DNA of 64,000 nucleotides from a virus (IMGVR_UViG_3300042867_001289:32001-96000), one strand, 5' to 3'; counted from the stretch's first letter, positions 7,431-27,217 are shown. Translations and numbers: made by a program. The notes: generated from the letters alone by a model not told the origin.

Positions 7431-7494
7431 TGTCAAGTCAATGCTACGGGCAGCCTGAGAACGGTCTCAGCTTCAGCAGTCAACCGATTTGACA
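7431..7494. promoter_or_regulatory. compact divergent promoter pair with central palindrome, unit 5
   Basis: TGTCAA-18bp-CTGAGaacggtCTCAG(7455-7470)-18bp-TTGACA. Confidence 0.8.
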
Positions 7495-7549
7495 GGCCCC
7501 ATTGCATGGTGTAAGGTATACATATCACCAAGAGCAAGGGAGCCAAGCA

Positions 7550-7657
7550 ATGACAAAGTCAGAACGTCGGGAAGCCCGCCACCGCGACCAATCAGTTCGC
7601 TGGGGAGGTGGCTACCGGCGAGATCAAAAGTCTCGCCAGTCGAAAGAACGCCGATAG
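7550..7657 (+). CDS. 35-aa basic microprotein (paralog of 3584-3697)
   Basis: MTKSERREAR...GGYRRDQKSRQSKERR. Confidence 0.7.
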   Translation: MTKSERREARHRDQSVRWGGGYRRDQKSRQSKERR

Positions 7658-7927
7658 CGGCGAGGGGGCCGAAAGGCCCCCACCTTCGCGTACCGCTTTA
7701 CCAGTCCCGCACCCAAACTCGCCCCCAGACCCACCCCCCCCTTTTTTTGTAACCTCGGGGCTCACCTGGCTATCAAAAGAGGGACAAGCCCCGACCCCCA
7801 AACTTTGCCCCCAAAATCTGCGCCCCCTTTTTTGCGAGGTGATCGGTTTCGGGGCTGCAAAATCAACGTGGAGTTGGACCAGCGGGGCCAACGGGAAGGG
7901 GGAGGCCGAAGCCCCCCCCTTTTCCGG

Positions 7928-8119
7928 CTACCACCATTTGGTGGGGTCGGTACCCAGTGGGTACCATGTGACCTCCGCAAACGGGATGGTGCCGCTAGAA
8001 CCGTCATCCGACCACACAACCGGTACTCCGATTGTTGGGTCGTCCAGATTGGTGATGAAGGCCGTAAGGCCGATCCTTCCCGACCTGTCGGCTACCTCTG
8101 TGTCGTTTCGGATGTGCAT
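7928..8119 (-). CDS. hypothetical protein, 63 aa
   Basis: MHIRNDTEV...; GAGGAG RBS, own promoter and hairpin. Confidence 0.7.
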   Translation of the reverse strand: MHIRNDTEVADRSGRIGLTAFITNLDDPTIGVPVVWSDDGSSGTIPFAEVTWYPLGTDPTKWW

Positions 8120-8173
8120 GACTAACTCCTCATTGCTTGGTGAAACACTGAACTTACACCCTAGGGCCGAGGC

Positions 8174-8356
8174 TGTCAAGTCAATACAACAAGTTTCTGT
8201 GATGCGATTCTAGGCGTACAACCCCTTGACGGGTGCTAGCACCGCCAGAATCCGTAAACGTGCCTAGAACGCGCTCACAATGGCCCTAGCGGCAATACCC
8301 CCTAGACACTCGGCATCCTAGGCGGTCGGCAGTCGGCATGAAATAAAGACTTGACA
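8174..8356. promoter_or_regulatory. divergent promoter pair, unit 6 (long-spacer type)
   Basis: TGTCAA 8174-8179, TTGACA 8351-8356. Confidence 0.75.
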
Positions 8357-8411
8357 AGGGTATGGGCAGGGTGTAAGGTAAGTACATCACCAAGCAGAGA
8401 GGGACCCGCAC

Positions 8412-8594
8412 ATGTGGGAAGTAATCAAGCACGCCCGTATCGAATGCCACGACTGTCAGTGCATGACAACCGTTGCCGATATGGGAACCATCTACCTAGG
8501 CTACACCTTCGAACTCGGCGGAGAGGAAATACAAGCCACCGCCTTCGCATGCAAGTCATGCCAATGGGACCGCTGGGAAGTGGAGTACGACTGA
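8412..8594 (+). CDS. 60-aa CxxC..CxxC microprotein
   Basis: CHDCQ...CKSCQ; RBS and hairpin. Confidence 0.7.
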   Translation: MWEVIKHARIECHDCQCMTTVADMGTIYLGYTFELGGEEIQATAFACKSCQWDRWEVEYD

Positions 8595-8783
8595 GACAAC
8601 GGGGGCCGAAAGGCCCCCACAGTCGCGCCCGCACTCGCATGCGTCCCGCACCCTGGAACCAGGAACAAAACAAACAACAGCCCCGCCCCCCAGTCTCACC
8701 CCAAAACCCTGGCCCCTTTTCAGAAATCTCGGGGCTCACAAACATTGTCATTCCACGCCCCAGCGGGACCCGGAAGGGGAGGG

Positions 8784-8876
8784 TCAGTCCTTCCACTTCC
8801 TGACCCACCGCTCGTTCCAGAGTGCCAGCGCACCCATACTCACTGCCCATCCTGTAGCTATTGCTAGGTATGTCAT
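8784..8876 (-). CDS. 30-aa hydrophobic microprotein
   Basis: MTYLAIATGWAVSMGALALWNERWVRKWKD; own TTGACA-17-TACAAT promoter and AGGAG. Confidence 0.6.
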   Translation of the reverse strand: MTYLAIATGWAVSMGALALWNERWVRKWKD

Positions 8877-8973
8877 TGCTTGGCTCCTGTTCCTTGGTGA
8901 AACACTATTGTACCATACACCTTGCACCTTGTCAAGTCGAAAGGCGAGTGACCGTAGCCACCCGCCTAACAAC

Positions 8974-9183
8974 TCACTCAGCTAACGCCGGTTCTCCCGA
9001 CATTTTTCGCATAACCGCTGTCAGCCGCTCGTATGCGTCGATCAACTCTAGCCCCTGCTCCGGGCTGTAGTTCACGTTGCTCCCGTCCTGTAGCTGCACT
9101 GCCATAAGCTCAGTCGCTTCGATAATAAGCTCCGAAGCTCTGAAGCACTTCTGGAGTGCCGTCCAGTCTTTCTTCTGGTCCAT
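8974..9183 (-). CDS. hypothetical protein, 69 aa
   Basis: MDQKKDW...; cassette leader and RBS. Confidence 0.65.
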   Translation of the reverse strand: MDQKKDWTALQKCFRASELIIEATELMAVQLQDGSNVNYSPEQGLELIDAYERLTAVMRKMSGEPALAE

Positions 9184-9234
9184 GATGACCTTTCTTTGTA
9201 GGTGAAACACTATTCTTGCACACTGCAGGGCACA

Positions 9235-9297
9235 ATGCAAATCGTGCTACAGGCAACCTGAGAGGCCCCTCAGACAACCCGCACGGTGGAATTGACA
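9235..9297. promoter_or_regulatory. compact divergent promoter pair, unit 7
   Basis: ATGCAA-17bp-CTGAGaggcccCTCAG(9258-9273)-18bp-TTGACA. Confidence 0.75.
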
Positions 9298-9349
9298 AAC
9301 TGCACCCTACATGCAATACTAGTGTTTCACCAACCAGCAAGGAGCCACA

Positions 9350-9469
9350 ATGGACAACGACAATTCAGACAATGACGACCTCACCACCTCAGAGATCGAA
9401 GAGATGTTACTCGTCATTGAAATGTTCAAAGAAATCGAAGCGGGAACCCCACCCGCACGAACCGAGTAA
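9350..9469 (+). CDS. 39-aa acidic microprotein
   Basis: MDNDNSDNDDLTTSEIEEMLL...; AAGGAG RBS. Confidence 0.6.
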   Translation: MDNDNSDNDDLTTSEIEEMLLVIEMFKEIEAGTPPARTE

Positions 9470-9473
9470 CAGA

Positions 9474-9499
9474 AAGGGCCACCCGCAAGGGTGGCCCTT
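9474..9499. terminator. hairpin between convergent genes
   Basis: AAGGGCCACCC-GCAA-GGGTGGCCCTT. Confidence 0.7.
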
Positions 9500-9518
9500 C
9501 TGCCCATCCACGGGACTA

Positions 9519-9779
9519 TCAGATAGTAACAACATTCCCAGGCGGGACTAACGCAACACGATGAGTCTCAACCCAACGCTCACCAGTCCCGGCAACAGGA
9601 GTCACCAACAGGTCAAGATGCCCGAAGCGAAGCCGTGCCTCGACAACGTTGACAGAAATCTGCAGGTCTTCCATCTTCATGACGCCTGACATGCCCCGCA
9701 AGGCTGCGATGTCTTCGGCGGTGATCTTCTTGTTATCGCCGTGTTCGTCCCGGGTTGAAAAGATTGTTCTTGTTGACAT
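9519..9779 (-). CDS. hypothetical protein, 86 aa
   Basis: MSTRTIFST...RFGHLDLLVTPVAGTGERWV; AGGAG RBS, TTGACA at 9831-9836. Confidence 0.7.
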   Translation of the reverse strand: MSTRTIFSTRDEHGDNKKITAEDIAALRGMSGVMKMEDLQISVNVVEARLRFGHLDLLVTPVAGTGERWVETHRVALVPPGNVVTI

Positions 9780-9909
9780 TTGTTCTCCTAATAGTTGGTA
9801 GGTCTGTACCTTACAGGGTGTTGGTGGCTGTGTCAAATCGGTGGTATCGAACTTGGGATCAGCTGTCGGGACTGCGGAGAGAGGGAGGGCTTTCGCCCCC
9901 CCCTCAGGG

Positions 9910-10074
9910 TCACTCTGAGCGGAACCCCTCTTCTTGCGAGATTTCACATCGCCAGTCCCAGATCAGGCGCTCTTTCTCAAGCTTGGCGGCTCTCGTCATC
10001 TCGTCGATGCGATCCTGCCACTCTTGGTATCCTCCCTGAACCCACAGGGCCGACAGTTCTAGTTCGTTTAGCAT
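9910..10074 (-). CDS. 54-aa microprotein
   Basis: MLNELELSALWVQGGY...EEGFRSE; GAGGAGG RBS. Confidence 0.65.
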   Translation of the reverse strand: MLNELELSALWVQGGYQEWQDRIDEMTRAAKLEKERLIWDWRCEISQEEGFRSE

Positions 10075-10129
10075 TTCGTCCTCCTCGGACTTGTTGGTGA
10101 AACACTATTATTGCACACTGTACGGCGCA

Positions 10130-10192
10130 ATGCAAATCGGATCATCGGCAACCTGAGAACAGTCTCAGGGAACCCATACGGTAAGCTTGACA
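10130..10192. promoter_or_regulatory. compact divergent promoter pair, unit 8
   Basis: ATGCAA-17bp-CTGAGaacagtCTCAG(10153-10168)-18bp-TTGACA. Confidence 0.78.
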
Positions 10193-10243
10193 GACTGCAC
10201 CCTGTATGGCATACTGGAGTCTCACCAACGAACAGGAGCAGTT

Positions 10244-10414
10244 ATGAATGACCTAGATATGATGATGGCGCTATGCGGCCAGCCAACAGCCGCAGAGACC
10301 GCACAAGAAGCACTGAGCTTCCTGCTCGTGGCTTGCGCAGTCGCAGGGCCAGCAAACAACGAGGAGCTAATCCTCGCAGCAAACATGCTCGCTGACGCAA
10401 TCAACAACCTCTAA
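10244..10414 (+). CDS. 56-aa helical microprotein
   Basis: MNDLDMMMALCG...; AGGAG RBS, hairpin downstream. Confidence 0.65.
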   Translation: MNDLDMMMALCGQPTAAETAQEALSFLLVACAVAGPANNEELILAANMLADAINNL

Positions 10415-10476
10415 GCGACAAGGGGGGGGGCCGCAAGGCCTCCCCCTTTTGCGCGCACCCACTTCTGCGTCCCGCC

Positions 10477-10707
10477 CTAGAAAAGCGTTTCCGTTTGCGG
10501 CGGGGCCTTCAACTTCTTCAACATCATACAAGTCTTACACATCCACCCCATCGGGGCTGTCGGCAAAGCCACAGCGTGAGCGCCACCGCCCTTACGGTTC
10601 TCAACCCAGCCAGTCACCTTCTTCCAGGTGCCCCGCTCTTTGGGGTTGATTTCCATTCCGCATTCTTCGCAAGTAAATAGTGGTGGGAGTCCCGATGTGT
10701 TTTTCAT
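10477..10707 (-). CDS. 76-aa CxxC..CxxC protein, leaderless
   Basis: CEECG...CKTC; TTGACT-17-TACAAT ends 7 nt before ATG. Confidence 0.7.
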   Translation of the reverse strand: MKNTSGLPPLFTCEECGMEINPKERGTWKKVTGWVENRKGGGAHAVALPTAPMGWMCKTCMMLKKLKAPPQTETLF

Positions 10708-10802
10708 ACTTGGAATTGTACCAGCCCCAAACCCGTAAGTCAAGGATATATTTGAGCGTGGCGGGACGCATGAGAGGGGGGAGGGTCTCGCCCTCCCCTG
10801 TC

Positions 10803-11021
10803 TCACTCCGCGGTGTAAACCTCGATCACTCGCCCGCCGAATGGCAAGAGCCATACGGTGCCGAGGAAGGTCTCTACCCCGTCCGTCTCTAGGGCCGCCG
10901 TGGGGTCCCCATGAGAGTCACGCTTGCTAGGTATACCCACCGTGTAGGTAGCCTCACCCCTAGCGTCCTCCCAAAGGATGACCCTTTGAGCGTCTTGTTG
11001 CCAATCATTCAATGTTTGCAT
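10803..11021 (-). CDS. hypothetical protein, 72 aa
   Basis: MQTLNDWQQ...; cassette promoter and RBS. Confidence 0.65.
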   Translation of the reverse strand: MQTLNDWQQDAQRVILWEDARGEATYTVGIPSKRDSHGDPTAALETDGVETFLGTVWLLPFGGRVIEVYTAE

Positions 11022-11073
11022 TGCACTGCCTTTCATTAGGTGATGACACTAGTATGGCATACACCTTACACCT

Positions 11074-11137
11074 TGTCAAATGCTAGCTGAGAACATCCTG
11101 AGAACGCCCTCAGACAAACCATACGGTGCATTTGACA
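11074..11137. promoter_or_regulatory. compact divergent promoter pair, unit 9
   Basis: TGTCAA-18bp-CTGAGaacgccCTCAG(11098-11113)-18bp-TTGACA. Confidence 0.8.
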
Positions 11138-11188
11138 GATTGCACCCTACATGGCATACTAGTGTTTCACCAAACGACAGGAGTTACA

Positions 11189-11401
11189 GTGACAAACAGA
11201 AACGACATAGTAGGAATGTGGCGGGCAGCCTGCCAAGCTGACCCAAGCTTTGACGAGCCGCTAGAAGAGTGGCTAGACCAATGGGAATGGCAACAGCAAG
11301 CCGTTCGCAAAGTGCAGGACGCATGGGGAGTGCAGGATAGTGATATCCCACCCGCATGGTTCGATCCCACGCTCTGTGGTGAGAGCTGGGATGGCGAATG
11401 A
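11189..11401 (+). CDS. 70-aa acidic Trp-rich protein
   Basis: GTG start after AGGAG; ends PPAWFDPTLCGESWDGE. Confidence 0.7.
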   Translation: MTNRNDIVGMWRAACQADPSFDEPLEEWLDQWEWQQQAVRKVQDAWGVQDSDIPPAWFDPTLCGESWDGE

Positions 11402-11653
11402 GTTGAGGGGGGCTACGGCCCCCCACCTCTTCGCGCCCGCACTTATGCGCCCCGCTACGAGAAGCTGCGCTAAGAACAACCAGGAGCCCCGCTAAATCAC
11501 TTCACCAAGCAGTGAAGATCACAGCCCCGCCCCCAATTTCCCCCCAAAGCCTGACCCCTTTCTAAATTTCGGGGCTTTGGGACAACATGGGCACACACCC
11601 CTATCGGGACTGCGGAGGCGGGGGAAGGGCCGTAGCCCTTCCCCCCTTTTCCG

Positions 11654-11932
11654 TTAGCCGATTTCGCTGGCCATGATGGTCAGCTTTGCTGCCAACAGCT
11701 TGAGAGCCTCAGCCTGATCAGCTAGAGAGCCTTTCAGGAAGATGTTTGTGAAGGTTTTCTCTGCCGGGAAAGAGATTGACACAAACGGCTCAACGCGATC
11801 CCCCTTCACGAGGGTAATTGTTGCGTCTCTGACGGCTTCACGATCAACCCCGTGGATGTTGACGCTACCGTCAACATTGATGGACTTGATTTGGTCGCCT
11901 ACTGTCATGTAGGCGGTTGCGGATGTACTCAT
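11654..11932 (-). CDS. hypothetical protein, 92 aa
   Basis: MSTSATAYM...; AAGGAG RBS. Confidence 0.7.
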   Translation of the reverse strand: MSTSATAYMTVGDQIKSINVDGSVNIHGVDREAVRDATITLVKGDRVEPFVSISFPAEKTFTNIFLKGSLADQAEALKLLAAKLTIMASEIG

Positions 11933-11984
11933 GCTCTCTCCTTGTTGGTTGGTGTACTGCAACTGTACTCTATAGGGTGTACCC

Positions 11985-12048
11985 CGTCAAATCGTAGCTA
12001 CAGCGAACCTGAGACCGCTCTCAGCTGCCGCTCATACTCGATTTGCAT
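11985..12048. promoter_or_regulatory. compact divergent promoter pair, unit 10
   Basis: CGTCAA-18bp-CTGAGaccgctCTCAG(12009-12024)-18bp-TTGCAT. Confidence 0.78.
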
Positions 12049-12099
12049 TGTGCTTTGTACTGTGCAATAATAGTGTTTCACCAACAGGAAAGAGCAGAC

Positions 12100-12279
12100 A
12101 TGCCAAACACACTCAACCGCTGCGATCAGTGTGAGGAACTCGTGCCAGAGGAACTCACAGAGGATGTCTACGGAAACGGGTTCTACTACTGCGATGAGTG
12201 CCACTACATCGACGTAGATGACGCTAGCGAGTGGGCGCAATTCGTCCACGACCACCGCCGAGGAGGTTACCTCGGCTAA
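12100..12279 (+). CDS. 59-aa CxxC..CxxC microprotein (paralog of 6741-6941)
   Basis: LNRCDQCEE...CDEC...EWAQFVHDHRRGG. Confidence 0.75.
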   Translation: MPNTLNRCDQCEELVPEELTEDVYGNGFYYCDECHYIDVDDASEWAQFVHDHRRGGYLG

Positions 12280-12426
12280 GCGAAGGGGGGCCGCAAGGCC
12301 TCCCGCATTCGCGTTCCCACGGGGCTCCCACATACACGGCCACCCCAGGCGTCCCGCACCAAAAACTTGCACTCCACGCTATCGGGGCTGCGGGGAAGGT
12401 CCCACCCTTTCAGGTGGGACCCGCTC

Positions 12427-12759
12427 TCAGCCCCAGACCACATCCGTTTCGAGAACGTCCGCGAGCCTTGCGACTGCGATGACTTCCTTGACTCGCATTG
12501 CTGCCACGTTGATGAGTTGGCCGCCCGGAAATTGCACCGGAGGACACTCCGAAGCCTTAGAGAGAGCCTCGTCGGCATTGTCGAGCAGTACTGACGGAGC
12601 GCATTCGCCTTCTGCTTCGTCTCCGGGCATTGCACAGAGGCCGAAGAAGGCCATTGTGGTTACCCATGAGCTATAGCCCATTGAGGCTGGCTCAAAGCCT
12701 TCTGATGCGAGAGCATCGTACTGGCTTCTGGTTACTGATGGTTGGATTTGGACTCCCAT
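12427..12759 (-). CDS. hypothetical protein, 110 aa
   Basis: Cassette promoter and RBS; acidic. Confidence 0.7.
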   Translation of the reverse strand: MGVQIQPSVTRSQYDALASEGFEPASMGYSSWVTTMAFFGLCAMPGDEAEGECAPSVLLDNADEALSKASECPPVQFPGGQLINVAAMRVKEVIAVARLADVLETDVVWG

Positions 12760-12811
12760 TGGTAGGGCCTTTCGTTAGGTGAGATACCATTATGGCATGT
12801 ACCCTGCACCT

Positions 12812-12873
12812 TGTCAAGTGTTGTCTGTGAGCGACTGAGGATTATCTCAGGTTGCCATGGCATGGGCTTGACA
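12812..12873. promoter_or_regulatory. compact divergent promoter pair, unit 11
   Basis: TGTCAA-17bp-CTGAGgattatCTCAG(12835-12850)-17bp-TTGACA. Confidence 0.8.
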
Positions 12874-12924
12874 GACTGCACCCTATAGGGCATAATAGTG
12901 TTTCACCAACAAGAAAGGCCCACC

Positions 12925-13086
12925 ATGGAAACCTACTACGAATACGAAGAGGATCAGTACCTCGCCGAACATGTCGACTGGATGGACGACTACGAAAGCG
13001 AAACACGCGACGAAGATGACTACGAAGAGTGGTGCTACGACTACTGCGAACAACGGGAGCCGGATGGCGACTGGGAATGCGACTGA
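12925..13086 (+). CDS. 53-aa extremely acidic/aromatic microprotein
   Basis: METYYEYEEDQYLAEHVDWMDDYE...; hairpin with TTCG loop downstream. Confidence 0.7.
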   Translation: METYYEYEEDQYLAEHVDWMDDYESETRDEDDYEEWCYDYCEQREPDGDWECD

Positions 13087-13423
13087 GTCAACGGGGGGAC
13101 TTCGGTCCCCCCAACCCAACCAAAGGAGGAAACGTAAAAAACGCCGCCGACTGGCGGAGAACAGACTGCGAGTCCACACCGGAAATTGACCTACCGGGGC
13201 TTCACGCCGAAACGGGGATGTGGCGCACAATGGAGTTCAACCAGTCACCAGGGGGCCGCAAGGCCCCCACTTTTCTATTCCCCAGCCCCGCTGAATCTTT
13301 CACACAAATCTGTTCACGGGGCTAAATAGCAAAAGCCTTTCGGCCCCCTGCACCGGTCACCACCAGTGCAGGGGAAGGGACTCGCTTCACAACAGCGGGT
13401 GAAGCAGAGCCCCGCCTGACCCC

Positions 13424-13639: not shown

Positions 13640-13704
13640 GTTTGTTCTTTCTGTTAGGTGATGAGTGTAAGTGTACACCCTAGGTGATGTCTTGTCAAGT
13701 TGTT

Positions 13705-13855: not shown

Positions 13856-13881
13856 ACTATTATTGCACACTATAGGCCACA

Positions 13882-13944
13882 ACGCAAATCACGCTACAAG
13901 CAACCTGAGAGAGTTCTTAGACAACTCACGCAGTGGAGTTGACA
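13882..13944. promoter_or_regulatory. compact divergent promoter pair, unit 12
   Basis: ACGCAA-17bp-CTGAGagagttCTTAG(13905-13920)-18bp-TTGACA. Confidence 0.7.
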
Positions 13945-14744: not shown

Positions 14745-14808
14745 CGTCAAATTGACTATAAGAGTTTCCTGAGAGCCGACTCAGCCTCACTCTAGCTACC
14801 GCTTGACA
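14745..14808. promoter_or_regulatory. compact divergent promoter pair, unit 13
   Basis: CGTCAA-18bp-CTGAGagccgaCTCAG(14769-14784)-18bp-TTGACA. Confidence 0.8.
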
Positions 14809-15532: not shown

Positions 15533-15652
15533 TGTCAAATTTAGGTGCATGAAACCTGAAGCCTTTCTCAGTTTGTTCTCTGTTCGTGACCTCCGAAACA
15601 GAGAACAGATTAGCTAAGAGCGTTCTCAGCTAGCCGACACGAAGACTTGACG
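15533..15652. promoter_or_regulatory. divergent promoter pair, unit 14, with two palindromes and an inserted hairpin
   Basis: Palindromes 15556-15571 and 15614-15629, each 17 bp from its -35. Confidence 0.7.
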
Positions 15653-16760: not shown

Positions 16761-16822
16761 AGTCAAATCGACGTACTCGCATCCTGAGAAATCGCTCAGA
16801 TTCTCAAGCAGTGGAGTTGACA
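16761..16822. promoter_or_regulatory. compact divergent promoter pair, unit 15
   Basis: AGTCAA-17bp-CTGAGaaatcgCTCAG(16784-16799)-17bp-TTGACA. Confidence 0.78.
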
Positions 16823-17958: not shown

Positions 17959-18020
17959 TGTCAACCTTTACTACAGACAAGCTGTGAGCGTTCTCAGCAT
18001 TCATGACGCAAGACTTGACA
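17959..18020. promoter_or_regulatory. compact divergent promoter pair, unit 16
   Basis: TGTCAA-17bp-CTGTGagcgttCTCAG(17982-17997)-17bp-TTGACA. Confidence 0.78.
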
Positions 18021-18812: not shown

Positions 18813-18875
18813 TGTCAAGCCTTGTCACAGGAAGCCTGATAACGCTCTCAGAATGCCTGACACATATACTTGACA
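18813..18875. promoter_or_regulatory. compact divergent promoter pair, unit 17
   Basis: TGTCAA-17bp-CTGATaacgctCTCAG(18836-18851)-18bp-TTGACA. Confidence 0.78.
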
Positions 18876-19665: not shown

Positions 19666-19727
19666 AGTCAAATCGTTGCACAAGAACCCTGTGGACGCTA
19701 TCAGGTTTCCGAGCAGTGGGGTTGACA
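19666..19727. promoter_or_regulatory. compact divergent promoter pair, unit 18
   Basis: AGTCAA-17bp-CTGTGgacgctATCAG(19689-19704)-17bp-TTGACA. Confidence 0.72.
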
Positions 19728-19780: not shown

Positions 19781-20143
19781 ATGAGAATCAACGACACATG
19801 GCGAGACGTAAACTCGGGAACGGTAATCGACCGCATTGCCGAACTGGGAGCGATCAGTCTTGCCGACGCAGATGAGAACGACTCAATCGAACTGGCAGAA
19901 CTACAGAATCTCGATCAACAAGGACGCGAGATTGTGGGCTGGGCCGAAGGCTACGTCATGCTAATCAAGGACGGCTACATGGAAGACCACGCTCAAGAGC
20001 GAGCAGAAGAAGAGGGCAAAATTAGCTTCAACGAGTGGCCAGCAACGGCCATTGACTGGCATCAAGCAGCAGAAGAACTCAAGTTCTCCTACGGCTACAT
20101 CCCAGTCGACTTTTTCAACAGCACCTACTGGGTCGTCAAGTAA
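19781..20143 (+). CDS. acidic protein resembling ArdA antirestriction C-terminal region
   Basis: YMEDHAQERAEE...WP..AIDWHQAAEELK..Y..VDF...YW; function inferred. Confidence 0.5.
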   Translation: MRINDTWRDVNSGTVIDRIAELGAISLADADENDSIELAELQNLDQQGREIVGWAEGYVMLIKDGYMEDHAQERAEEEGKISFNEWPATAIDWHQAAEELKFSYGYIPVDFFNSTYWVVK

Positions 20144-20223
20144 GAAACCTCTCAGCGCCCCCTTGACAAACCGTCATGGGGGCGCTACAATGTACACATA
20201 CCACCTAACAGAAGGAGCCAAAC

Positions 20224-20891: not shown

Positions 20892-20914
20892 GAGAGGAAG
20901 CGAGTTTCAAGCCT

Positions 20915-21265
20915 GAGACCTATGCCCACCACCACCAAAAAGGTGGAGAAGGGGCATAGGTCAATCACTCCCATCGGAGTCGCTTCGTCACGAAGCCATC
21001 GAAATACGGTGTCGGGTATTATCCGATCACATTACCGGCATATGTTTGCGGGGCTTGGCGCTAATATATTTATGCGCACGAAAGCATTCGTTCGGCTCGG
21101 GCATCCTTTATCCGACTGCCCGCAAACGCGAGATTTGCAGACGTCCCGCTTAATGGGAACGTCTGCGGCATGCCCCTCTAACGGGCGACTGTACCGACGG
21201 CTAACCGGCCCCCCAGGTTTAAGACTCGGGGCTGTCTGTGTTTGCTTCACGTTTTGTGTAGCGGC
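20915..21265. ncRNA. candidate structured non-coding RNA (~350 nt), possibly minus strand
   Basis: Dense inverted repeats incl. long-range stem 21044-21052/21119-21127; extended -10 TGCTACAGT on minus strand near 21270-21278; no credible ORF. Confidence 0.45.
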
Positions 21266-21411
21266 AGGGACTGTAGCACCGTGTTTTGTCGCGTGTTGGA
21301 TACTTTGATTAATATGTTTTTCCTCAGTTTGCTCAGACGGTCAATTTGACGTATTGCCTTAACTGGTGTAGAGTGATACCACTACCTACTACAGCAATGA
21401 AGGAGCCAAAC

Positions 21412-21912
21412 ATGACTTACATCGATCAAGCGTTTGCAAAAATGATTGAAGCCGGACTTGAAGAAGTGGAAAGAACCACCGAGAAAGTCTCAGTGCCGGA
21501 CGGCATCTGGGCACCGAACTCCCGATGGGAATACGGTGACGACGAGGGACCAGAATGGCCTTTCTCGAAGTTTGAGGAGATCTACGTCGTCACAGCCTCT
21601 GGCTACAGGTATGAGATCACTCCAGTGATCCTGCCGGACTACTGGCGCATCGCGATCCTCGTCCTGTCGCCCGACGTAGGTGATGTACTTAACCTAGGCC
21701 TTCCAGCAGGTAACGACATGGATCTGGCCGTTGAGATTAAGGATGACGAGGTTGAGTTTGCCATGGATCTGGCGGTGGCCGTAGCTGTCGAAGAAATCTC
21801 GACTCAGCTTCATAAGGCATTGGAGACGGACGTTGTTCGTCAGGCGAATGCTTTGGTTGCCAAGTTTCGGGAGTCGGCCAATCAACATTTTGATGCAAGC
21901 TGGCGGAAGTAG
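21412..21912 (+). CDS. acidic hypothetical protein, 166 aa
   Basis: MTYIDQAF...; TTGACG promoter, AAGGAG RBS. Confidence 0.75.
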   Translation: MTYIDQAFAKMIEAGLEEVERTTEKVSVPDGIWAPNSRWEYGDDEGPEWPFSKFEEIYVVTASGYRYEITPVILPDYWRIAILVLSPDVGDVLNLGLPAGNDMDLAVEIKDDEVEFAMDLAVAVAVEEISTQLHKALETDVVRQANALVAKFRESANQHFDASWRK

Positions 21913-21985
21913 TCGAATAAATCCCTTGACAGCCTGATCTAAACAAGCTACAATAAGAACCTAACTACCACACGAAAGAGCCAAA

Positions 21986-22513
21986 ATGCACACACCACAA
22001 GGTACAAGATCAATCTCCGTATGGGGAGCAAGAGGAGGCATGGGCTGCACCACGACAGCACTCCTACTAGCCAAAACAGGGCTAACCGCCATCGTCTACG
22101 ACCAGATACACAACGGTGGGTTCGACATCCCCACCAAAGAAAGCAAATGGTCAGAAACCCCAGGGCCATGGGAACTCGAAATCAGTGACCGTGGACCAAT
22201 CTCCGAAGAAAGCCGATGGGACCTTGCAGACCTAAACTACATCGTCCTACGCGGCCCATCCTTCCTCGGACTTGCAAGCATCGTCGAACTAGCCGAGTAC
22301 TGGATACCATCAGCACACACCATCAGTGTCATCGTCCTAGAAGACGAACATTCAATTCTGACTGTCGAAGAAGTATCAGCAGTGCTTCACAACGTCAAAG
22401 TCACCTCAATGCCACTAACCCCAGCTATCGCAAGGCTTAGCGACAGAGGCATGATCTGCGACATCCCCACGATGGCAGACGAACCACAACTAGTCGAAAT
22501 GCTAATCAAGTAA
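21986..22513 (+). CDS. small ParA/MinD/CpaE-like P-loop protein
   Basis: ISVWGARGGMGCTTTALLLA resembles deviant Walker A. Confidence 0.55.
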   Translation: MHTPQGTRSISVWGARGGMGCTTTALLLAKTGLTAIVYDQIHNGGFDIPTKESKWSETPGPWELEISDRGPISEESRWDLADLNYIVLRGPSFLGLASIVELAEYWIPSAHTISVIVLEDEHSILTVEEVSAVLHNVKVTSMPLTPAIARLSDRGMICDIPTMADEPQLVEMLIK

Positions 22514-22581
22514 TCCGGCTGGGGCTTCGGCCCCAGCCACACCAAATCGCCTACAATGGTGACACCCGACAAGGAGTCCCG

Positions 22582-22944
22582 ATGCCCGACATTCCCCCAA
22601 ACAGCTCTCAACTATTCGTCTCCGACTGGCTTGGTACAAACTACAAGGCATGGGAAATCACAGACGCCCTAAGAGAGCTAGCCTCAGAATTTGGTTTAGA
22701 TGCCGACGATGTTGTCGGGACTGGTATACGGGTTGTTAAACTCCAGGCTTCGAAAAGCCTTGAAACTGATGACGACAAATTTTGGTATGAAAGCAGCAAC
22801 GACACATATGCGTCCCGGGATATCTGGGCTGTTGTAGAAGGAAGTCCCGTTAACGCTGTGATTCTTTACCTTGATATAGAAGCTAATGAATTGAAGGCTA
22901 ATGCTTGGGCTGAGAGGGAAAGGTTCAGGCGACTGAACCCTTAA
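22582..22944 (+). CDS. hypothetical protein, 120 aa
   Basis: AAGGAG RBS, TACAAT upstream. Confidence 0.7.
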   Translation: MPDIPPNSSQLFVSDWLGTNYKAWEITDALRELASEFGLDADDVVGTGIRVVKLQASKSLETDDDKFWYESSNDTYASRDIWAVVEGSPVNAVILYLDIEANELKANAWAERERFRRLNP

Positions 22945-22956
22945 GGAGTCCCGTAT

Positions 22957-23322
22957 ATGGTTCTAGATCCGTTCACGTTTTTTTTAGTAAGCCTTGCCGT
23001 TTATCGTGTTGTTAGGTTTTGCCTGTACGACAGTTTGATAGCCCCGCTCAGGGATCGCCTGTTTGAGGGTTTGTCTTTTGATCGTGAGTATGACGACGGG
23101 ACTGTTGAGTTGTTTGGTCGTCCTGGGTTGCGGGGCTGGTTTTTTTCTTTGTTGTCTTGTTATTGGTGTTTTGGGGTTTGGGTTGCGGGGCTGTTTAGTT
23201 TGGTTTGGGTTGTGTGGGGTGGTTTGGGTTGCGGGGCTGGTGTTGTGGTTTGGTTGGCTTTGTCTGTTGTCGGGGCTTGGTTGCGTATGTTTGAGCTTTT
23301 GGTTGTGGGTTTTATTGACTGA
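22957..23322 (+). CDS. DUF1360 family membrane protein
   Basis: LAVYR..R....D.L..PLR and LLSCYWC.GVW motifs, hydrophobic helices. Confidence 0.75.
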   Translation: MVLDPFTFFLVSLAVYRVVRFCLYDSLIAPLRDRLFEGLSFDREYDDGTVELFGRPGLRGWFFSLLSCYWCFGVWVAGLFSLVWVVWGGLGCGAGVVVWLALSVVGAWLRMFELLVVGFID

Positions 23323-23411
23323 GAGTTTTGTCAGGTTTCTGGGCAGACGATTTGACGTATCCTTGCTTGCAGTGTACAGTGGGTACACATCAACCAACAA
23401 GGAGCCATACA

Positions 23412-23891
23412 ATGTCATACATTTACAACACACTTACACTCTCTGGTAGCAACGACACAATCACAAAGTTCGTCCTTGCTATCAACGACAACAAGAACAC
23501 ACTGCGCAACACATGGTCTGTTCTTGGAACACACCTACCAGAGTGGCATCACCCTGATGAGGCTAACGACCCATTCTATGTGGAAGACGGTCACGCCTAT
23601 ATCAACACTTGCACCACGTTTATGGCCCCTACGGGCGCTCTACAGAAGGTGTCGGTCAACTTCCCTAACTTGACCTTCTCTAATTACTTTACGGAAGAGT
23701 CAGATGCCTTTGCTGGTTACGCTGTAATCAAGGACGGTGTGGTCTTGGATGTCTACGATGAGGATCAGCCTGATTTTGAGTGGGACGATAATCCTGATTC
23801 CGATAATGAGGATTTTTATGACCAGATCAGCGAATGGCAACGTGGCATCGAGGATCGCTGTTACAACAGTGCCGAGAACGTAAAGTCCTAA
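23412..23891 (+). CDS. DUF1281/YubB-like protein (distant paralog of 20224-20736)
   Basis: N-terminal NTLTLSG, APT..L..VS..FP.L.F, EES..FAG, acidic tail. Confidence 0.65.
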   Translation: MSYIYNTLTLSGSNDTITKFVLAINDNKNTLRNTWSVLGTHLPEWHHPDEANDPFYVEDGHAYINTCTTFMAPTGALQKVSVNFPNLTFSNYFTEESDAFAGYAVIKDGVVLDVYDEDQPDFEWDDNPDSDNEDFYDQISEWQRGIEDRCYNSAENVKS

Positions 23892-23973
23892 TAAGAACCT
23901 TCACAGCACCCCTTTGACAGACCGTCAGGGGGGTGCTACAGTGTACACATACCAACTACTAAGGAGCTAAACA

Positions 23974-24186
23974 ATGCCTACAACCTACATGACACTAGTA
24001 CTATCCGACGACACCGAATTTTGTAAGCCTTTCATTGGAAGAGCACGCCCTGACGAGGTAATCGTGGTCGGTGGCATCGATCAGCAAGTCAACGTCAACA
24101 TTCATGCCACAAAGGATCAGTGGGCGGCATTAGCAGTCTATTGCCTACAGTGTGTAGAAGCACTAGTGCTGGATGAAGCAAAATGA
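23974..24186 (+). CDS. hypothetical protein, 70 aa
   Basis: Own promoter, AAGGAG RBS. Confidence 0.65.
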   Translation: MPTTYMTLVLSDDTEFCKPFIGRARPDEVIVVGGIDQQVNVNIHATKDQWAALAVYCLQCVEALVLDEAK

Positions 24187-24596
24187 ACACAGACATCTAC
24201 GGAAACCAAATCACTACACACTCGCTAAACATCGACTGGAACTTGCTAGCTAAGCAAAAGAAGCTAGTTCTAGACTTTCTAAATAGTGAGAGTCCAACAC
24301 AATTTGCCGACGTATGGAACAACAGCGACGGCCAGGATCTGATGGATGGACTCTTAAACGTCCTTGACAGCTTGCAAGATCAAGCCGCAGAAGAGCTTGG
24401 CGAAGAAGCCGTATTTGGGCCATGGTGGAATTACCGAACGCCTACCCATAAAATTGTCTGGTCAGAAGGACATGGCTTTGTCGAAGATGAACAATTTTTT
24501 ACAAACATTATGGATGCGAAGAATTACAAGGCCGAACACCCATTGGGCAAGTTTGCGTCTGTGGTTCCCATACCTGACGGAAGCGGCTTAATCTGA
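24183..24596 (+). CDS. hypothetical protein, 137 aa
   Basis: ATGA overlap; IDW.LL.KQK...GLLN.LD.LQD.A motif. Confidence 0.75.
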   Translation: MNTDIYGNQITTHSLNIDWNLLAKQKKLVLDFLNSESPTQFADVWNNSDGQDLMDGLLNVLDSLQDQAAEELGEEAVFGPWWNYRTPTHKIVWSEGHGFVEDEQFFTNIMDAKNYKAEHPLGKFASVVPIPDGSGLI

Positions 24597-24683
24597 GAGG
24601 ATCCTCAGGTTCAGCCGCTTGCGATTTGCGCCAACATGCATTGCCATGTACGATGTACACATACCAACCAACAAGGAGCCACA

Positions 24684-25556
24684 ATGCTAAAGCCACAACA
24701 ACTAGAACAGCACCTATCCCAACTAACAGAACTAGCAGAATCTGACCTAATGAGCGCTAAAGAGGCAAACAGCTTCTACGCACAAGTGAGGGTCCTATTC
24801 GGTTTCAAGCCACTAGCAGGGTTTTTTCTTTCAACAGAGAAAGATATCGCCAAGCTAGACGTGGGAACGGGCCGCCACCTAATCGGCCTATCTCTCCCAC
24901 CGGCCACATCCTCTGGTCTTGCCAACACTTGCGCATTCGAAGACGACTGTCTGACAAAGTGCGTAGGCGTAGGCGGTTCGAATCGCTTCAGTAGCGCTTC
25001 TAACGGCAAGGCGGCCAGACTGCAATTGTTTATCGACAATCCCCAGGCCGCGCTAGCGTTGCTAGTAGGCGGGATCGATAAGGCAGTAGCTAACCATGGT
25101 GCCGAGAATGTAGCCGTTCGATTGAATATCTATTCGGATCTTAGGTGGGAACGCATTCTGCCAAATTGGTTCTGGACACGCTTTGCAAACGTAGTCTTCT
25201 ACGATTACACAAAGCATCCTCTGGCCAGTCGACCAGTAGCAACTATTCCAGCTAATTACAAGCTGACATACTCTGTTAGCAAGCGGTCGACGGTATGGCA
25301 AGTGTCTAACCAGCGTAACGCAGGACGGCCAGTAGCGGTCGTTATCGATACCCGTGGCGGTAAGGTCAAGGGGACCGATAAGTACCGTGATTTGCCGCTT
25401 GAGGCAGACGGTGTGACCATCGTCGACGGTGACGCTAGTGATCGTCGCTATGAAGATCCTGCTGGCGCTTTAGTTCTTCTACGTCGGAAGAATGGTCTGC
25501 CCGCATCTGATCCTCTGGTTCGGAATGCGGAGCAATTGGAAGCAATGCTTTCCTAA
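24684..25556 (+). CDS. GP88-like phage protein (Cys-motif, possible Fe-S enzyme)
   Basis: C.....C...C, RLN.YSD..WE, FYDYTK, NY.LTYS, DGD.SD.RY.DP motifs. Confidence 0.75.
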   Translation: MLKPQQLEQHLSQLTELAESDLMSAKEANSFYAQVRVLFGFKPLAGFFLSTEKDIAKLDVGTGRHLIGLSLPPATSSGLANTCAFEDDCLTKCVGVGGSNRFSSASNGKAARLQLFIDNPQAALALLVGGIDKAVANHGAENVAVRLNIYSDLRWERILPNWFWTRFANVVFYDYTKHPLASRPVATIPANYKLTYSVSKRSTVWQVSNQRNAGRPVAVVIDTRGGKVKGTDKYRDLPLEADGVTIVDGDASDRRYEDPAGALVLLRRKNGLPASDPLVRNAEQLEAMLS

Positions 25557-25644
25557 GAACCTTCACAGGTGGCGGGTGGAATCACTTGACGAGAGTGGTT
25601 TCACCCGCTATCATGTACACATACCAACTACTAAGGAGCTAGCA

Positions 25645-26133
25645 ATGAGACCACAAAAAACACTAAGAGAACTAGTCGGAATCATAATGGTTCCATCTCA
25701 CGAGCTTGAAGAGCTCATCTTGGACGCTTACGCCGACGAAATTGAGAAGGCCGTACAAACAGCAATCTCTGACCAGATCAGCGAAGAAGTTCGAGATGCG
25801 GGGCTCTACGAGATCACAGATCAAAACATTCTGTGTAGTGACCATAGCGAGCCTTTCACTTGGCACGCTGTTGTTAGTTACGATGAGCCACTTGACCCCG
25901 AGTCTGAGTCTGTGAACGACTTTTACATGCCGACCCAGGAGGGTGATATGGCCGTGGAAGCTGCTGTGCGCAAGGTTCTGGGATCTAAGTCGATTGAAGG
26001 CGCAATGTATTATGTCCAGCTAGAAGTAGCTGAACAGGGGTTTGATCAGTGCAATGCCGTTTATGGCATAGATGTTGCTATGAGGATTCGTGCCGTCTTG
26101 AATGGGACTCAGCGCCTGTACGTCGCAATGTAA
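25645..26133 (+). CDS. acidic hypothetical protein, 162 aa
   Basis: MRPQKTLR...; cassette leader and RBS. Confidence 0.7.
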   Translation: MRPQKTLRELVGIIMVPSHELEELILDAYADEIEKAVQTAISDQISEEVRDAGLYEITDQNILCSDHSEPFTWHAVVSYDEPLDPESESVNDFYMPTQEGDMAVEAAVRKVLGSKSIEGAMYYVQLEVAEQGFDQCNAVYGIDVAMRIRAVLNGTQRLYVAM

Positions 26134-26227
26134 AGCTGAGTGGCCTCACAGCTAGTGGGGCCACTCACTTGACCATCTATTATCTATCTGTTACCATGTA
26201 CACATGACAAACAACGAGGAGCCAACA

Positions 26228-26488
26228 ATGATTGACGAAGAGACAGACCTACCAATCGACACAACCGAACCAAGGTTCCCAGAAGTAGAACTTACGGTTG
26301 ACATCTTTGGAACAGAAGGAAACGCCTTCTTTCTTATCAGCAAGGTGCGTAGGGAGCTGGCATATCACGATGCGAGCGAAGAGGAAGTCGAAGAGTTTGA
26401 TAAGGAAGCCAAGTCTGGCGATTACCAGAATGTGCTTGACACAATTGGTAGGTGGATTACCTTTACTTACTTTCCAGAGCCTTTCTAA
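26228..26488 (+). CDS. conserved phage hypothetical protein, 86 aa
   Basis: G.EGNAF.LI..V...L...EEF..EA.SGDY motif. Confidence 0.8.
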   Translation: MIDEETDLPIDTTEPRFPEVELTVDIFGTEGNAFFLISKVRRELAYHDASEEEVEEFDKEAKSGDYQNVLDTIGRWITFTYFPEPF

Positions 26489-26569
26489 GAACCTTCTCAG
26501 TGTCCCCCTTGACAAGCAGTCGGGGGGACACTACAATGTACACATACCAACCAACAAGGAGCCAAAACA

Positions 26570-27022
26570 ATGGAAATACGATTCGAACTATGGCAAGCAT
26601 TCGACGATGAAGACTTCTTCTCCCGTCGCACACCCTGCCCAATGCGCCCACAATACTCAGGAATGATCGAATTCAATGCCGGACCAGACGGCAAGCTGCC
26701 AGTCTACCCAACACTCGACAAGCTGTTCGAGATGTTCAACATCAACCACCCCCACGACTTCACCGGACACTCATTGAGCGTTCACGACATCGTCGTCCTA
26801 GGTGAAACGTCTTACCAGTGCATGCCAATCGGATGGGAAATCTGCTCAGCACCTTCAATCAAAGGGCCAGCAGACGTTGTTGAACTGCCCTTCATGGACC
26901 CTCGGGCCACAGTCTGTGGACACTGCAGACGAGGATGGGACGACACCGTAGCCACAGGCTGGACACCCGTACCATCCGGCAGGTGCCCATTCGAGTACGA
27001 GCATGAGTACGAGGATGACTAA
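26570..27022 (+). CDS. YodL-like domain protein with C-terminal Cys motif
   Basis: LFEMFN..HP.DF.GHSLSV.DIVVL....Y.C..IGW. Confidence 0.75.
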   Translation: MEIRFELWQAFDDEDFFSRRTPCPMRPQYSGMIEFNAGPDGKLPVYPTLDKLFEMFNINHPHDFTGHSLSVHDIVVLGETSYQCMPIGWEICSAPSIKGPADVVELPFMDPRATVCGHCRRGWDDTVATGWTPVPSGRCPFEYEHEYEDD

Positions 27023-27217
27023 TCCTGGGCACGTCCGGGGCTGGTCGCATTATCGACACTAGCCCCCGACGGCCTGCACTGGGCGAGCCACACGCCCGCC
27101 ATTAGGGTAGCCGACAAAATGCCCCCTGAGCGAATACTTATTAACTTTGTTCAACAAATTGACTAAAGTCCTACATTTTGCTATCATGTACACATACCAA
27201 CTACTAAGGAGCTAACA

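Follow-up and report, generated by a model that had tools for sequence, protein, structure and literature searches.

A palindrome kept at a fixed distance from early phage promoters as the putative operator of one symmetric regulator

Background

A 16-bp palindrome, CTGAGNNNNNNCTCAG (CTGAG-N6-CTCAG), lies repeatedly between the -35 boxes of promoters that point in opposite directions in the early region of an uncultured actinobacterial phage from a lake, and the question raised by this arrangement is what reads the palindrome and to what effect. The window, that is, the whole stretch of 64,000 nucleotides that we analyzed and from whose first nucleotide all positions are counted, belongs to a virus record of 128,048 bp that is 87% complete. 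The initial annotation proposed that one dimeric factor binds the palindrome and co-regulates 30 or more promoters, and it named a recombination site as the alternative.

Abundance and position of the palindrome

The window holds 9 exact matches to the palindrome against 0.03 expected, a number reached in 0 of 100 shuffles of the window, and when up to two mismatches are allowed it holds 50 matches against 28.1 +/- 5.8 (largest shuffle, 44). These 9 copies, which span 7455-24608, are the only exact ones in the 128,048-bp record, and a backwards control pattern has 0 matches across the same record. The weight-matrix scan of the phage that the initial annotation had called for was run, and all position weight matrix hits scoring at least 14.6 fall inside 7455-27814, in the early region.

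Thirty-one sigma-70-type promoters have a copy ahead of their -35 box at 17 or 18 bp, and 19 copies, the degenerate one at 27126 included, account for all of them (Table 1). The gap is 17 bp in 19 of these promoters and 18 bp in the other 12, and between the dyad centre and the upstream edge of the box there are 25.5 +/- 0.5 bp. All left and right gaps listed earlier for 12 divergent units with one palindrome each were reproduced exactly, as was the 17-bp gap of the single promoters at 23319, 24593, 25553, 26136 and 27126; at 27126 the gap stands and membership of the group is doubtful, the matrix score of 7.4 being within noise. Beyond the earlier list, a hairpin insertion separates a leftward copy (15556) from a rightward copy (15614) in what makes a thirteenth divergent unit. 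The leftward promoter of unit 13905 has no open reading frame behind it by the rule applied. Unit 11098 carries an additional overlapping half-site copy from 11087.

Table 1. Copies of the palindrome with their -35 boxes, and candidate binder genes
Feature	Position	-35 box	Gap (bp)	Remarks
Divergent unit	7455..7470	leftward 7436-7431; rightward 7489-7494	18/18	CTGAGAACGGTCTCAG
Divergent unit	9258..9273	leftward TTGCAT 9240-9235; rightward 9292-9297	17/18	
Divergent unit	10153..10168	leftward 10135-10130; rightward 10187-10192	17/18	
Divergent unit	11098..11113	leftward 11079-11074; rightward 11132-11137	18/18	
Divergent unit	12009..12024	leftward 11990-11985; rightward TTGCAT 12043-12048	18/18	
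Divergent unit	12835..12850	leftward 12817-12812; rightward 12868-12873	17/17	
Divergent unit	13905..13920	leftward TTGCGT 13887-13882; rightward 13939-13944	17/18	1 mismatch (CTTAG)
Divergent unit	14769..14784	leftward 14750-14745; rightward 14803-14808	18/18	
Split unit, left copy	15556..15571	leftward only, 15538-15533	17	1 mismatch
Split unit, inserted inverted repeat	15572..15613			~10-bp stem between both copies, read directly off the sequence
Split unit, right copy	15614..15629	rightward only, 15647-15652	17	1 mismatch (CTAAG)
Divergent unit	16784..16799	leftward 16766-16761; rightward 16817-16822	17/17	
Divergent unit	17982..17997	leftward 17964-17959; rightward 18015-18020	17/17	1 mismatch (CTGTG)
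Divergent unit	18836..18851	leftward 18818-18813; rightward 18870-18875	17/18	1 mismatch (CTGAT)
Divergent unit	19689..19704	leftward 19671-19666; rightward 19722-19727	17/17	2 mismatches
Close copy, palindrome-like	20140..20155	20163	7	score 12.3; upstream TAA at positions 2-4
Single promoter	23319..23334	rightward 23352-23357	17	1 mismatch; TGA of upstream gene 22957-23322 at positions 2-4
Close copy, palindrome-like	23891..23906	23914	7	score 12.0
Single promoter	24593..24608	rightward TTGCGC 24626-24631	17	exact; TGA of upstream gene at positions 2-4
Single promoter	25553..25568	rightward 25586-25591	17	2 mismatches (CTAAG..CACAG); upstream TAA at positions 2-4
Single promoter	26136..26151	rightward 26169-26174	17	1 mismatch
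Close copy	26485..26500	26509	8	1 mismatch, score 19.9; upstream TAA at positions 2-4
Single promoter, doubtful member	27126..27141	rightward 27159-27164	17	degenerate, 8/10
Orphan copy	27814..27829	next at 27906	76	1 mismatch, score 17.2; upstream TGA at positions 2-4
Candidate binder, HA domain	28844..29260			- strand; 138 aa; sub-threshold sigma-70 region-4-like helix-turn-helix
Candidate binders, ribbon-helix-helix-like N-termini	32783-33104, 33083-33268, 33265-33615			+ strand; three tandem small genes
Candidate binder, MarR family winged-helix	36454..36915			+ strand; 153 aa; MarR_2 34.6 bits, cut-off 27

An independent promoter scan of the whole genome, which required 10 or more matches in the 12 hexamer positions and ignored the palindrome, returned 57 promoter-like sites. 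A palindrome of at least 8/10 lies at a gap of 17 (11 sites) or 18 bp (8 sites) in 19 of the 57, and each other gap from 0 to 120 bp is represented by at most 2; equal frequency at random offsets is what the initial annotation had said would tell against its reading. If the -35 hexamer is set as -35 to -30, the centre of the dyad comes out at -60.5 or -61.5, a figure that assumes the usual distance from hexamer to start. Read from the hexamers in this manner, all 31 promoters have a site near -61.5 on one helix face, as in class I activation, so that the spacing behind the class I placement made earlier is upheld and the value of -61 itself is a prediction from the hexamers. The first start codons follow about 75-80 bp beyond the near edge of the palindrome, after a full promoter and leader; in the comparison with start-associated repeats, the distance from palindrome to start codon is put at about 110-125 bp.

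Four copies are found at a non-canonical distance. Three of them (20140, 23891 and 26485) have a -35 box at 7, 7 and 8 bp and, because they are 10 bp or one helical turn closer, would be on the same helix face; the fourth is the orphan at 27814. The -35 box of copy 20140 is within the loop of a G+C-rich hairpin, and the same hairpin layout around the -35 box is seen at 23891 and 26485. The stop codon of the upstream gene occupies positions 2-4 of the palindrome in 6 of the 9 copies in tandem context, which the operator model proposed below does not predict.

Conservation of the half-sites

We took the mean identity between the members of 453 promoter pairs, paralogous copies from one genome that were in part picked by the motif itself, as the measure of conservation. 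The half-sites (0.89) are conserved like the -35 box (0.80), and the N6 core (0.41), the 17-nt gap (0.34) and the promoter spacer (0.35) are near random, in agreement with the earlier description of variable cores and flanks around constant half-sites at a constant distance. Half-site identity is still 0.88 in the 224 pairs with unrelated spacers (identity <=0.35), and positions 1-5 and 12-16 have an information content of 1.5-2 bits, against <0.8 bits in the core and the gap. At least four unrelated promoter subtypes, with different spacers, -10 boxes and leaders, have the palindrome in common.

Among 23 copies there are 20 deviations from the consensus (18 mismatches, 2 G-T, 0 compensatory), and because all of them are one-sided it appears that a sequence is read and not a hairpin. 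The hairpins have stems of 5-7 bp and, when folded as single-stranded DNA, an energy of only -2.6 to -6.6 kcal/mol; in the divergent units the palindrome precedes both promoters, so that no RNA-level role is needed. An intrinsic terminator or structured hairpin was rejected on these grounds, and a search of Rfam at the palindromes gave no known RNA family.

A putative operator and its alternatives

The anatomy, the statistics and the selective conservation of the half-sites are direct observations, and together they suggest that CTGAG(a)-N4-(t)CTCAG is probably the operator of one symmetric regulator, placed in a class-I-like manner, which would act through a stereospecific contact with the polymerase. 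What we infer, as follows, is that a protein binds, that it makes this contact, which way it acts and where it comes from. The binder would be a sequence-specific helix-turn-helix dimer or ribbon-helix-helix tetramer, and would recognize two half-sites separated by one helical turn, 17-18 bp upstream of the -35 box in about 30 host-type (sigma-A/sigma-70-like) early promoters and centred near -61. In 12 of the units a single copy sits exactly halfway between two promoters that point apart, which would turn either half of the bound protein towards one RNA polymerase; the earlier idea that symmetry lets one site serve both directions is borne out to the extent that one copy is common to both promoters. 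The claim of one factor for some 30 or more promoters holds for the DNA, where about 30 of them have one and the same symmetric element at a constant distance that keeps the helical phase, and the factor itself is a prediction.

The strict spacing, the variant one turn closer and the presence of two copies where a unit is split point to a stereospecific contact with the polymerase from upstream, at a class-I-like position where the alpha C-terminal domain could fit in the 17-18-bp gap; judged from the layout, simple occlusion is not what it looks like. At a guess, the protein may be phage-encoded, expressed from promoters that lack the palindrome, and used to time a block of small orphan early genes. 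Most likely, the repeated placement of the palindrome enables one symmetric DNA-binding protein to govern the whole early gene set. Our guess as to sign is positive control, which we consider somewhat likelier than shut-off and a little short of an even chance.

Shut-off, in which a phage middle protein at -61 would silence both flanking strong early promoters, is the lesser possibility and on the whole unlikely. The promoters are near consensus, with a 17-bp spacer, A2 and T6 of the -10 box in 31/31 and TTGAC in 26/31, so that they should fire unaided and an activator may be superfluous, and early orphan genes are typically switched off later in infection. Against this, a site in a bacterial promoter whose centre is near -61 and which stays clear of the core elements is usually that of an activator. 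A weak -35 box is also tolerated where the palindrome is present: 14 of the 31 promoters with it do not have TTGACA, against 1 of 20 similar promoters without it (judged functional by sequence), a comparison in which the way of finding the two sets introduces a bias. That these 20 promoters do without the palindrome counts against the operator model. For shut-off, the polymerase could be held through the upstream contact, as phi29 p4 does in its contribution to repression of A2c, or a larger complex could be nucleated. The passages on phi29 cited here (PMC3100819) describe p4 as both activating and repressing from inverted repeats between promoters, its sites being CTTTTT-N15-AAAATG with A-tracts, partly over -35 boxes, among A2c, A2b and A3. 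The resemblance lies in inverted repeats between opposed promoters and in a phage dimer that contacts the host polymerase, the binder being putative in our phage; the difference, going by those same passages, is that p4 requires a partner, p6, and that there is one control region there and about 20 here (PMC3100819).

We consider it a little less probable still that the palindrome is the site of a host transcription factor, either borrowed for immediate-early expression or titrated away from the host. Immediate-early genes are limited to factors present in the cell beforehand, and none of the phage proteins examined has the palindrome assigned to it. The scan of candidate hosts proposed in the initial annotation speaks against a host factor as far as it reaches: in 401 sampled Actinomycetota, an unpublished genome (G229) among them, CTGAGA-N4-TCTCAG has at most 2 exact copies in each, by a strict 12-base pattern and in a sample that the true host may be outside of. 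At least one copy occurs in 33 of the 401 genomes, and the backwards control occurs in about 19. The palindrome is also unlike the CRP/GlxR consensus. No related genome with the motif was found; a distant relative (G001) has sigma-70-like promoters but no such palindrome. Judging from the genomes compared, it is a lineage-specific motif.

It is very improbable that the palindrome serves recombination or marks a cassette boundary, with promoter-gene modules being exchanged or inverted there. The region is an array of modules, the subtypes are paired in varying left/right combinations around the palindrome, and the upstream gene often ends within it, as given above. Site-specific recombinases require matching cores, however, and the N6 core varies from copy to copy; homologous exchange needs more than five conserved bases, and the promoter and leader contain longer stretches of conservation; nor would such a site account for the constant 17-18 bp that separate the palindrome from the -35 box. 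The alternative named in the initial annotation is thus weakened, because the cores all differ and no tyrosine or serine recombinase (Phage_integrase, Resolvase) was matched in the 87%-complete record; a site-specific site was rejected for want of an identical core and a cognate enzyme of these families. Least credible is a functionless passenger of promoter cassettes copied many times: some flanks are common within a subtype (e.g., GTTGCC after CTCAG) and the core AACCTT is identical in four copies, but conservation is uneven, with half-sites at 0.88 even between unrelated spacers against 0.34 in the adjoining gap, and the palindrome is found in all four subtypes.

Comparison with known regulatory sites

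The operator reading can be compared with class I activation at lac P1, where the CRP site at -61.5 has its centre about 26 bp from the upstream -35 edge, and a single CRP site serving divergent promoters has reportedly been described by El-Robh and Busby. The phage element is alike in its 16-bp dyad, 5-bp half-sites, 6-bp core and distance of about 26 bp, and in that one symmetric site can face two promoters. It differs in that the half-sites are CTGAG/CTCAG and not TGTGA/TCACA, the promoters are near consensus and not weak, the arrangement is repeated 12-13 times within one 13-kb stretch, and activation is only proposed. The CRP/FNR consensus is TGTGA-N6-TCACA or TTGAT-N4-ATCAA, and no clear CRP-family gene was found in the phage, the sole HTH_Crp_2 match (13.2 bits, below cut-off) being in the MarR-like gene; a CRP/FNR-family operator was rejected on the consensus and on this result.

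The L5 stoperators and the conserved inverted repeats of phiC31 are lysogenic-repressor sites within or downstream of promoters, and stoperators are asymmetric and orientation-dependent. Our phage shares with them tens of copies of a short operator across early-gene intergenic regions of an actinophage, but its palindrome is symmetric and precedes the -35 box by a set distance, and no integrase turned up in the 87%-complete record. With no Phage_integrase or Resolvase match and with sites so placed, an array of lysogenic-repressor operators was rejected. At late promoters of P2 Ogr and P4 Delta, a dyad near -55 is used by a small phage activator acting via the polymerase alpha subunit. In both cases many phage promoters have a dyad ahead of the -35 box, the activator here being only proposed; the sequence and spacing of the dyad differ, and an Ogr_Delta domain is absent from this phage genome.

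Other actinophages carry short many-copy palindromes with invariant arms and a variable centre, as does ours: in the passages cited here these are TGTTCGG-N3-CCGAACA in Cluster O mycobacteriophages, with >30 copies between or inside genes (PMC4351075, PMC6439249), and GATCAACC-NN-GGTTGATC in Cluster EG Microbacterium phages, 14-22 bp upstream of start codons (PMC7302621). A fixed distance to the -35 box is seen in our phage, and none is stated in those passages (PMC4351075, PMC6439249, PMC7302621). A start-associated palindrome of the second kind was rejected on the distance to the start codons given above.

Candidate binders encoded by the phage

Candidates for the binder in the phage genome are a MarR family gene, a gene with an HA domain and three tandem genes with ribbon-helix-helix-like N-termini (Table 1), and WhiB genes are candidates too. 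The first of the tandem genes (32783-33104) has no HicB/Arc match, and sub-threshold matches of this kind are limited to the second and third. A different palindrome, TCATCTAGATGA, is present in the upstream region of gene 28844.

Layout and position of the palindrome

The first 29,400 nucleotides of the window are densely filled with short genes behind sigma-70-type promoters, and 45 promoter-like sites were counted between 7001 and 27000, compared with 13.1 ± 3.6 in shuffled sequences. Exact copies of the 16-bp palindrome CTGAG-N6-CTCAG number 9 against 0.03 expected, with none in the rest of the record. On each side of a copy the same layout follows: a TTGAC-type -35 box, a 17-bp spacer, a -10 box of the TAnnnT or (C/A)ATAAT type that is often preceded by TG, a conserved leader, AGGAG and the start codon. 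The left and right gaps that the initial annotation had assigned to 12 divergent units were all reproduced from the sequence, as were those of its five single promoters, and a thirteenth, split unit was added. The copy at 27126 has the right gap, but its membership is doubtful: its weight-matrix score of 7.4 is too degenerate when scores of 9 or more already arise about 10 times in shuffles.

Random placement was checked by scanning the genome for promoter-like sites without reference to the palindrome. The palindrome (at least 8 of 10 half-site bases) stood at a gap of 17 or 18 bp in 19 of the 57 sites found and, at any other gap from 0 to 120 bp, in at most 2, several of these off-gap copies being an overlapping half-site or the neighboring copy of the split unit.

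Positions of palindrome copies, candidate genes and neighboring features (window coordinates)
Feature	Position	Remark
Compact divergent units	7455, 9258, 10153, 11098, 12009, 12835, 13905, 14769, 16784, 17982, 18836, 19689	one palindrome, two opposed promoters
Split divergent unit	15556/15614	one copy per promoter, at 17 bp
Single promoters	23319, 24593, 25553, 26136, 27126	
Copies 7-8 bp from -35 box	20140, 23891, 26485	
Orphan copy	27814	
Candidate: MarR-family protein	36454-36915	no link to palindrome found
Candidate: HA + helix-turn-helix protein	28844-29260	other palindrome upstream of own gene
Candidates: three tandem ribbon-helix-helix-like genes	32783-33615	sub-threshold matches in only 2 of 3
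Candidates: several small CxxC proteins	4396-4572, 5865-6056, 8412-8594	no link to palindrome found
12-bp palindrome TCATCTAGATGA	29261-29314	
Cluster of weak palindrome-like matches	33164-33612	
Wide divergent promoter regions	3740-3935, 4616-4820, 5605-5822, 8164-8370	homologous
Rightward -35 box in inverted-repeat loop	20156-20191, 23907-23942, 26501-26537, 25569-25608	
Possible small RNA	13700-13882 (-)	
MYQ.V.ESDFAQ paralogues	14404-14691 (-), 15171-15479 (-), 16875-17165 (+)	
Short basic peptides	7550-7657, 3584-3697	paralogues
Skewed stretch	33650-34450, 34001-36000	

Conservation of the half-sites

Spacer, -10 box and leader divide the 31 promoters with the palindrome at the 17- or 18-bp gap into four or more subtypes. 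Over 453 promoter pairs the half-sites had a mean identity of 0.89, a figure inflated by the partly motif-based picking of copies, above the 0.80 of the -35 box. Values close to random were seen for the N6 core (0.41), for the promoter spacer (0.35) and for the 17 nt adjoining the -35 box (0.34), and the contrast between half-sites and directly adjoining bases is unaffected by how the copies were picked. In the 224 pairs with unrelated spacers the half-sites, subject to the same inflation, were still 0.88 identical. The information profile has two symmetric peaks of 1.5 to 2 bits and weaker preferences for A (position 6) and T (position 11), which makes CTGAGa / tCTCAG the better form of the half-site. 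Two further counts carry no weight for conservation: in L005, a short related contig, 61 differences fall within 26224-28300 and 0 within the three palindromes covered, where only about 1.4 would be expected, and in contigs from four lake-metagenome runs none of the 40 differences listed, out of 488, lies within a palindrome.

The 20 departures from consensus in 23 copies affected one arm only in every case, and in 0 of 20 was pairing restored. The hairpins that the palindrome could form are weak, and in divergent units it lies upstream of both promoters and is thus absent from the transcript of either. These three observations indicate that the palindrome is recognized in the DNA duplex, one half-site at a time, by a partner with two-fold symmetry.

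Regulatory interpretation

The half-site centers are 10 to 11 bp apart, as would fit either a helix-turn-helix dimer or a pair of ribbon-helix-helix dimers bound to one face of the DNA. Measured from the upstream edge of the -35 box, the dyad center is at 25.5 ± 0.5 bp and, if transcription starts at the usual distance from the -10 box, would be near -61. A site near -61 is in the class I position, and a gap of 17 to 18 bp leaves room for the alpha C-terminal domain of RNA polymerase. Within a unit the two -35 boxes are 50 to 52 bp apart with the palindrome midway. Three observations favor a face-of-helix requirement acting per promoter: the gap varies by no more than one bp, three copies stand 10 bp nearer to the -35 box, and in the split unit each promoter has its own copy at 17 bp. 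Neither an occluding repressor nor a site of nucleation would be expected to depend on such spacing. What stands of the class I activator interpretation in the initial annotation is that the palindrome is likely, from its fixed spacing and half-site conservation, an operator at a class-I-like position.

Whether the bound factor turns these promoters on or off is a separate matter, and we predict activation with slightly less than even confidence. Position counts for it, together with the weak -35 boxes (TTGCAT, TTGCGC, TTGCGT) among the palindrome promoters. Exact TTGACA is found in 17 of 31 palindrome promoters versus 19 of 20 palindrome-less ones (Fisher p = 0.004), but the latter set was found by TTGAC-like boxes, and this biased comparison was set aside. 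That a dimer bound upstream represses these promoters instead is somewhat less likely. Two points count for repression: the promoters look strong enough without help, and the phi29 protein p4, an upstream dimer, represses as well as activates (PMC3100819).

Among the 9 copies of the rightward tandem part, 6 contain the upstream gene's stop codon at positions 2-4, where chance would give one frame in three. These 6 include three of the four copies off the canonical distance, and the G-to-A variant CTAAG still holds a stop codon. These stops may reflect genes that reach the next regulatory module, or the history of a cassette. They are the main reason why a role in recombination or as a boundary is still given a small probability, against which stand the variable palindrome cores and the failure to find a tyrosine or serine recombinase in the record. 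A restriction site is rejected, as neither CTCAG (220 copies) nor CTGAG (150 copies) is avoided on the + strand of the genome.

Returning to the operator, a more speculative reading, which we hold tentatively, is that promoter, 17-18 bp, palindrome, 17-18 bp and promoter make up a natural bidirectional expression cassette that was copied 12 to 13 times. One symmetric protein would touch two RNA polymerases simultaneously, one with each half, and each copy would serve the phage as a ready-made slot into which orphan genes for host takeover can be plugged. About 30 promoters would then be timed by a single protein, a new gene could be recruited merely by landing beside a cassette, and the stops embedded in the tandem part would mark genes grown to the edge of the next cassette. 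If true, this would be a very clean natural case in which two promoters share one operator with exact symmetry, about a dozen times over, and a one-factor regulon spanning the entire orphan early block of an uncultured freshwater actinophage. The 16-bp site would be a handle for finding the regulator and for sorting promoters into temporal classes, actinobacterial genetics could use the unit as a compact two-way promoter, and a promoter-linked case would join the unexplained repeated palindromes of actinophages.

Comparison with known systems

The two-promoter pattern had 0 matches in viral contigs; its 2 matches in metagenome contigs were both one unrelated long hairpin. CTGAGA-N4-TCTCAG-N17/18-TTGAC gave 6 single matches, all unrelated, and for a 15-mer of the conserved leader there were at least 117 single matches, none of those listed having the promoter context of this phage. 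A narrow literature search found no description of this motif or layout. Stoperators and the phiC31 repeats are reiterated repressor operators of temperate phages that act at or after promoters. The present palindrome has class I geometry. One dyad common to two promoters is already known for CRP. Repeated palindromes have been described in Cluster O (PMC4351075, PMC6439249) and Cluster EG phages (PMC7302621); in the parts of these reports used here they are start-associated or scattered and untied to a -35 box, while the present palindrome keeps a fixed distance from it. The palindrome is neither a CRP site nor a member of the Cluster O/EG, stoperator or phiC31 repeats, and it likely works in the manner of a CRP site.

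Candidate binding proteins

The initial annotation had proposed to look for the motif in candidate host genomes; in 401 sampled Actinomycetota genomes (the unpublished genome G229 included) the 12-base motif never exceeded 2 copies per genome. Since the palindrome is also absent from G001, a distant relative, a phage-encoded factor is favored over a host one. G001 has TCTAGA-like words beside two of its -35 boxes.

Neither an early-type promoter nor a CTGAG palindrome was found upstream of the MarR-like gene. Pfam identified no DNA-binding domain in 20 early proteins, and HTH_3, RHH_1 and Ogr_Delta are absent from the genome. The sequence TCATCTAGATGA, between the leftward HA/helix-turn-helix gene and a rightward promoter at 29315, is probably that protein's own operator. 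Inside the ribbon-helix-helix-like genes, five weak palindrome-like matches (scores 9.2-13.6, in the noise range) fall within 450 bp, an unusual clustering.

Virus, host and relatives

The virus record has 128,048 bp, of which the window covers bases 32001-96000, and is scored as linear and 87% complete. It contains four WhiB genes, and since the Pfam WhiB control was positive only in Corynebacterium among 14 control genomes, the host is likely actinobacterial. A WhiB query against genome contigs matched only Streptomyces (46%) and a Saccharibacteria bin (40%), and for this reason no closer host call was made. The primase/helicase is about 30% identical to Arthrobacter phage proteins. No integrase or resolvase was found in the record, so the virus is probably lytic.

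Region 7300-17299 is present in 24 lake-water metagenome DNA runs, and no RNA runs are listed among the sequencing runs carrying it. Contig joints from these runs fall in repeated promoter sequence with flanks of only 21-50 nucleotides and were left out of the analysis. Near and distant DNA searches with 7300-12300 gave no match in cultured phages. Two short IMG/VR contigs, L005 and L006, have a primase/helicase 96% identical in protein and DNA about 95% identical, and cover only 26224-34951 and 28843-33734, respectively; a further IMG/VR set has a primase/helicase at 44% protein identity. No relatives of the GP88-like protein were found by search.

Neighboring features

The wide divergent promoter regions have about 170 bp between their -35 boxes, a mean column identity of 74% and many CTAG-containing repeats. 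Within them a diverged element resembling the palindrome, CTGTGATGCGATTCTA (or CTGAGGCCGTTCTAGG at 5640), sits some 17 bp from the leftward -35 box and may be an older or second type of operator. Four rightward promoters have their -35 box in a hairpin loop, enclosed by the arms of a G+C-rich inverted repeat that no T-run follows, so that the terminator-like hairpin of the upstream gene overlaps the next promoter. The leader motif TTTCACCAAC, TATCACCTAAC or ACATACCAAC, located between the -10 box and AGGAG, occurs in all promoter subtypes and at about 50 promoters from 7500 to 28300 (0.8-1.0 bits per position); it may act as a signal for the start region or for translation.

No open reading frame was found behind the leftward promoter of unit 13905. 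The segment of about 170 nt there has a hairpin and a terminator-like site (13813-13793), is followed by a promoter at 13698 and is a possible small-RNA gene. Three early proteins of 95 to 102 aa, paralogues that start MYQ.V.ESDFAQ, each lie behind a different palindrome promoter; the one tested, the product of 14404-14691, had no Pfam match. The strongly skewed stretch (GC +0.25, AT -0.53), with ACACACCGTCACAAAA-type repeats, adjoins the WhiB gene at 34019-34375 (-) and may be an origin or a strand-switch point.
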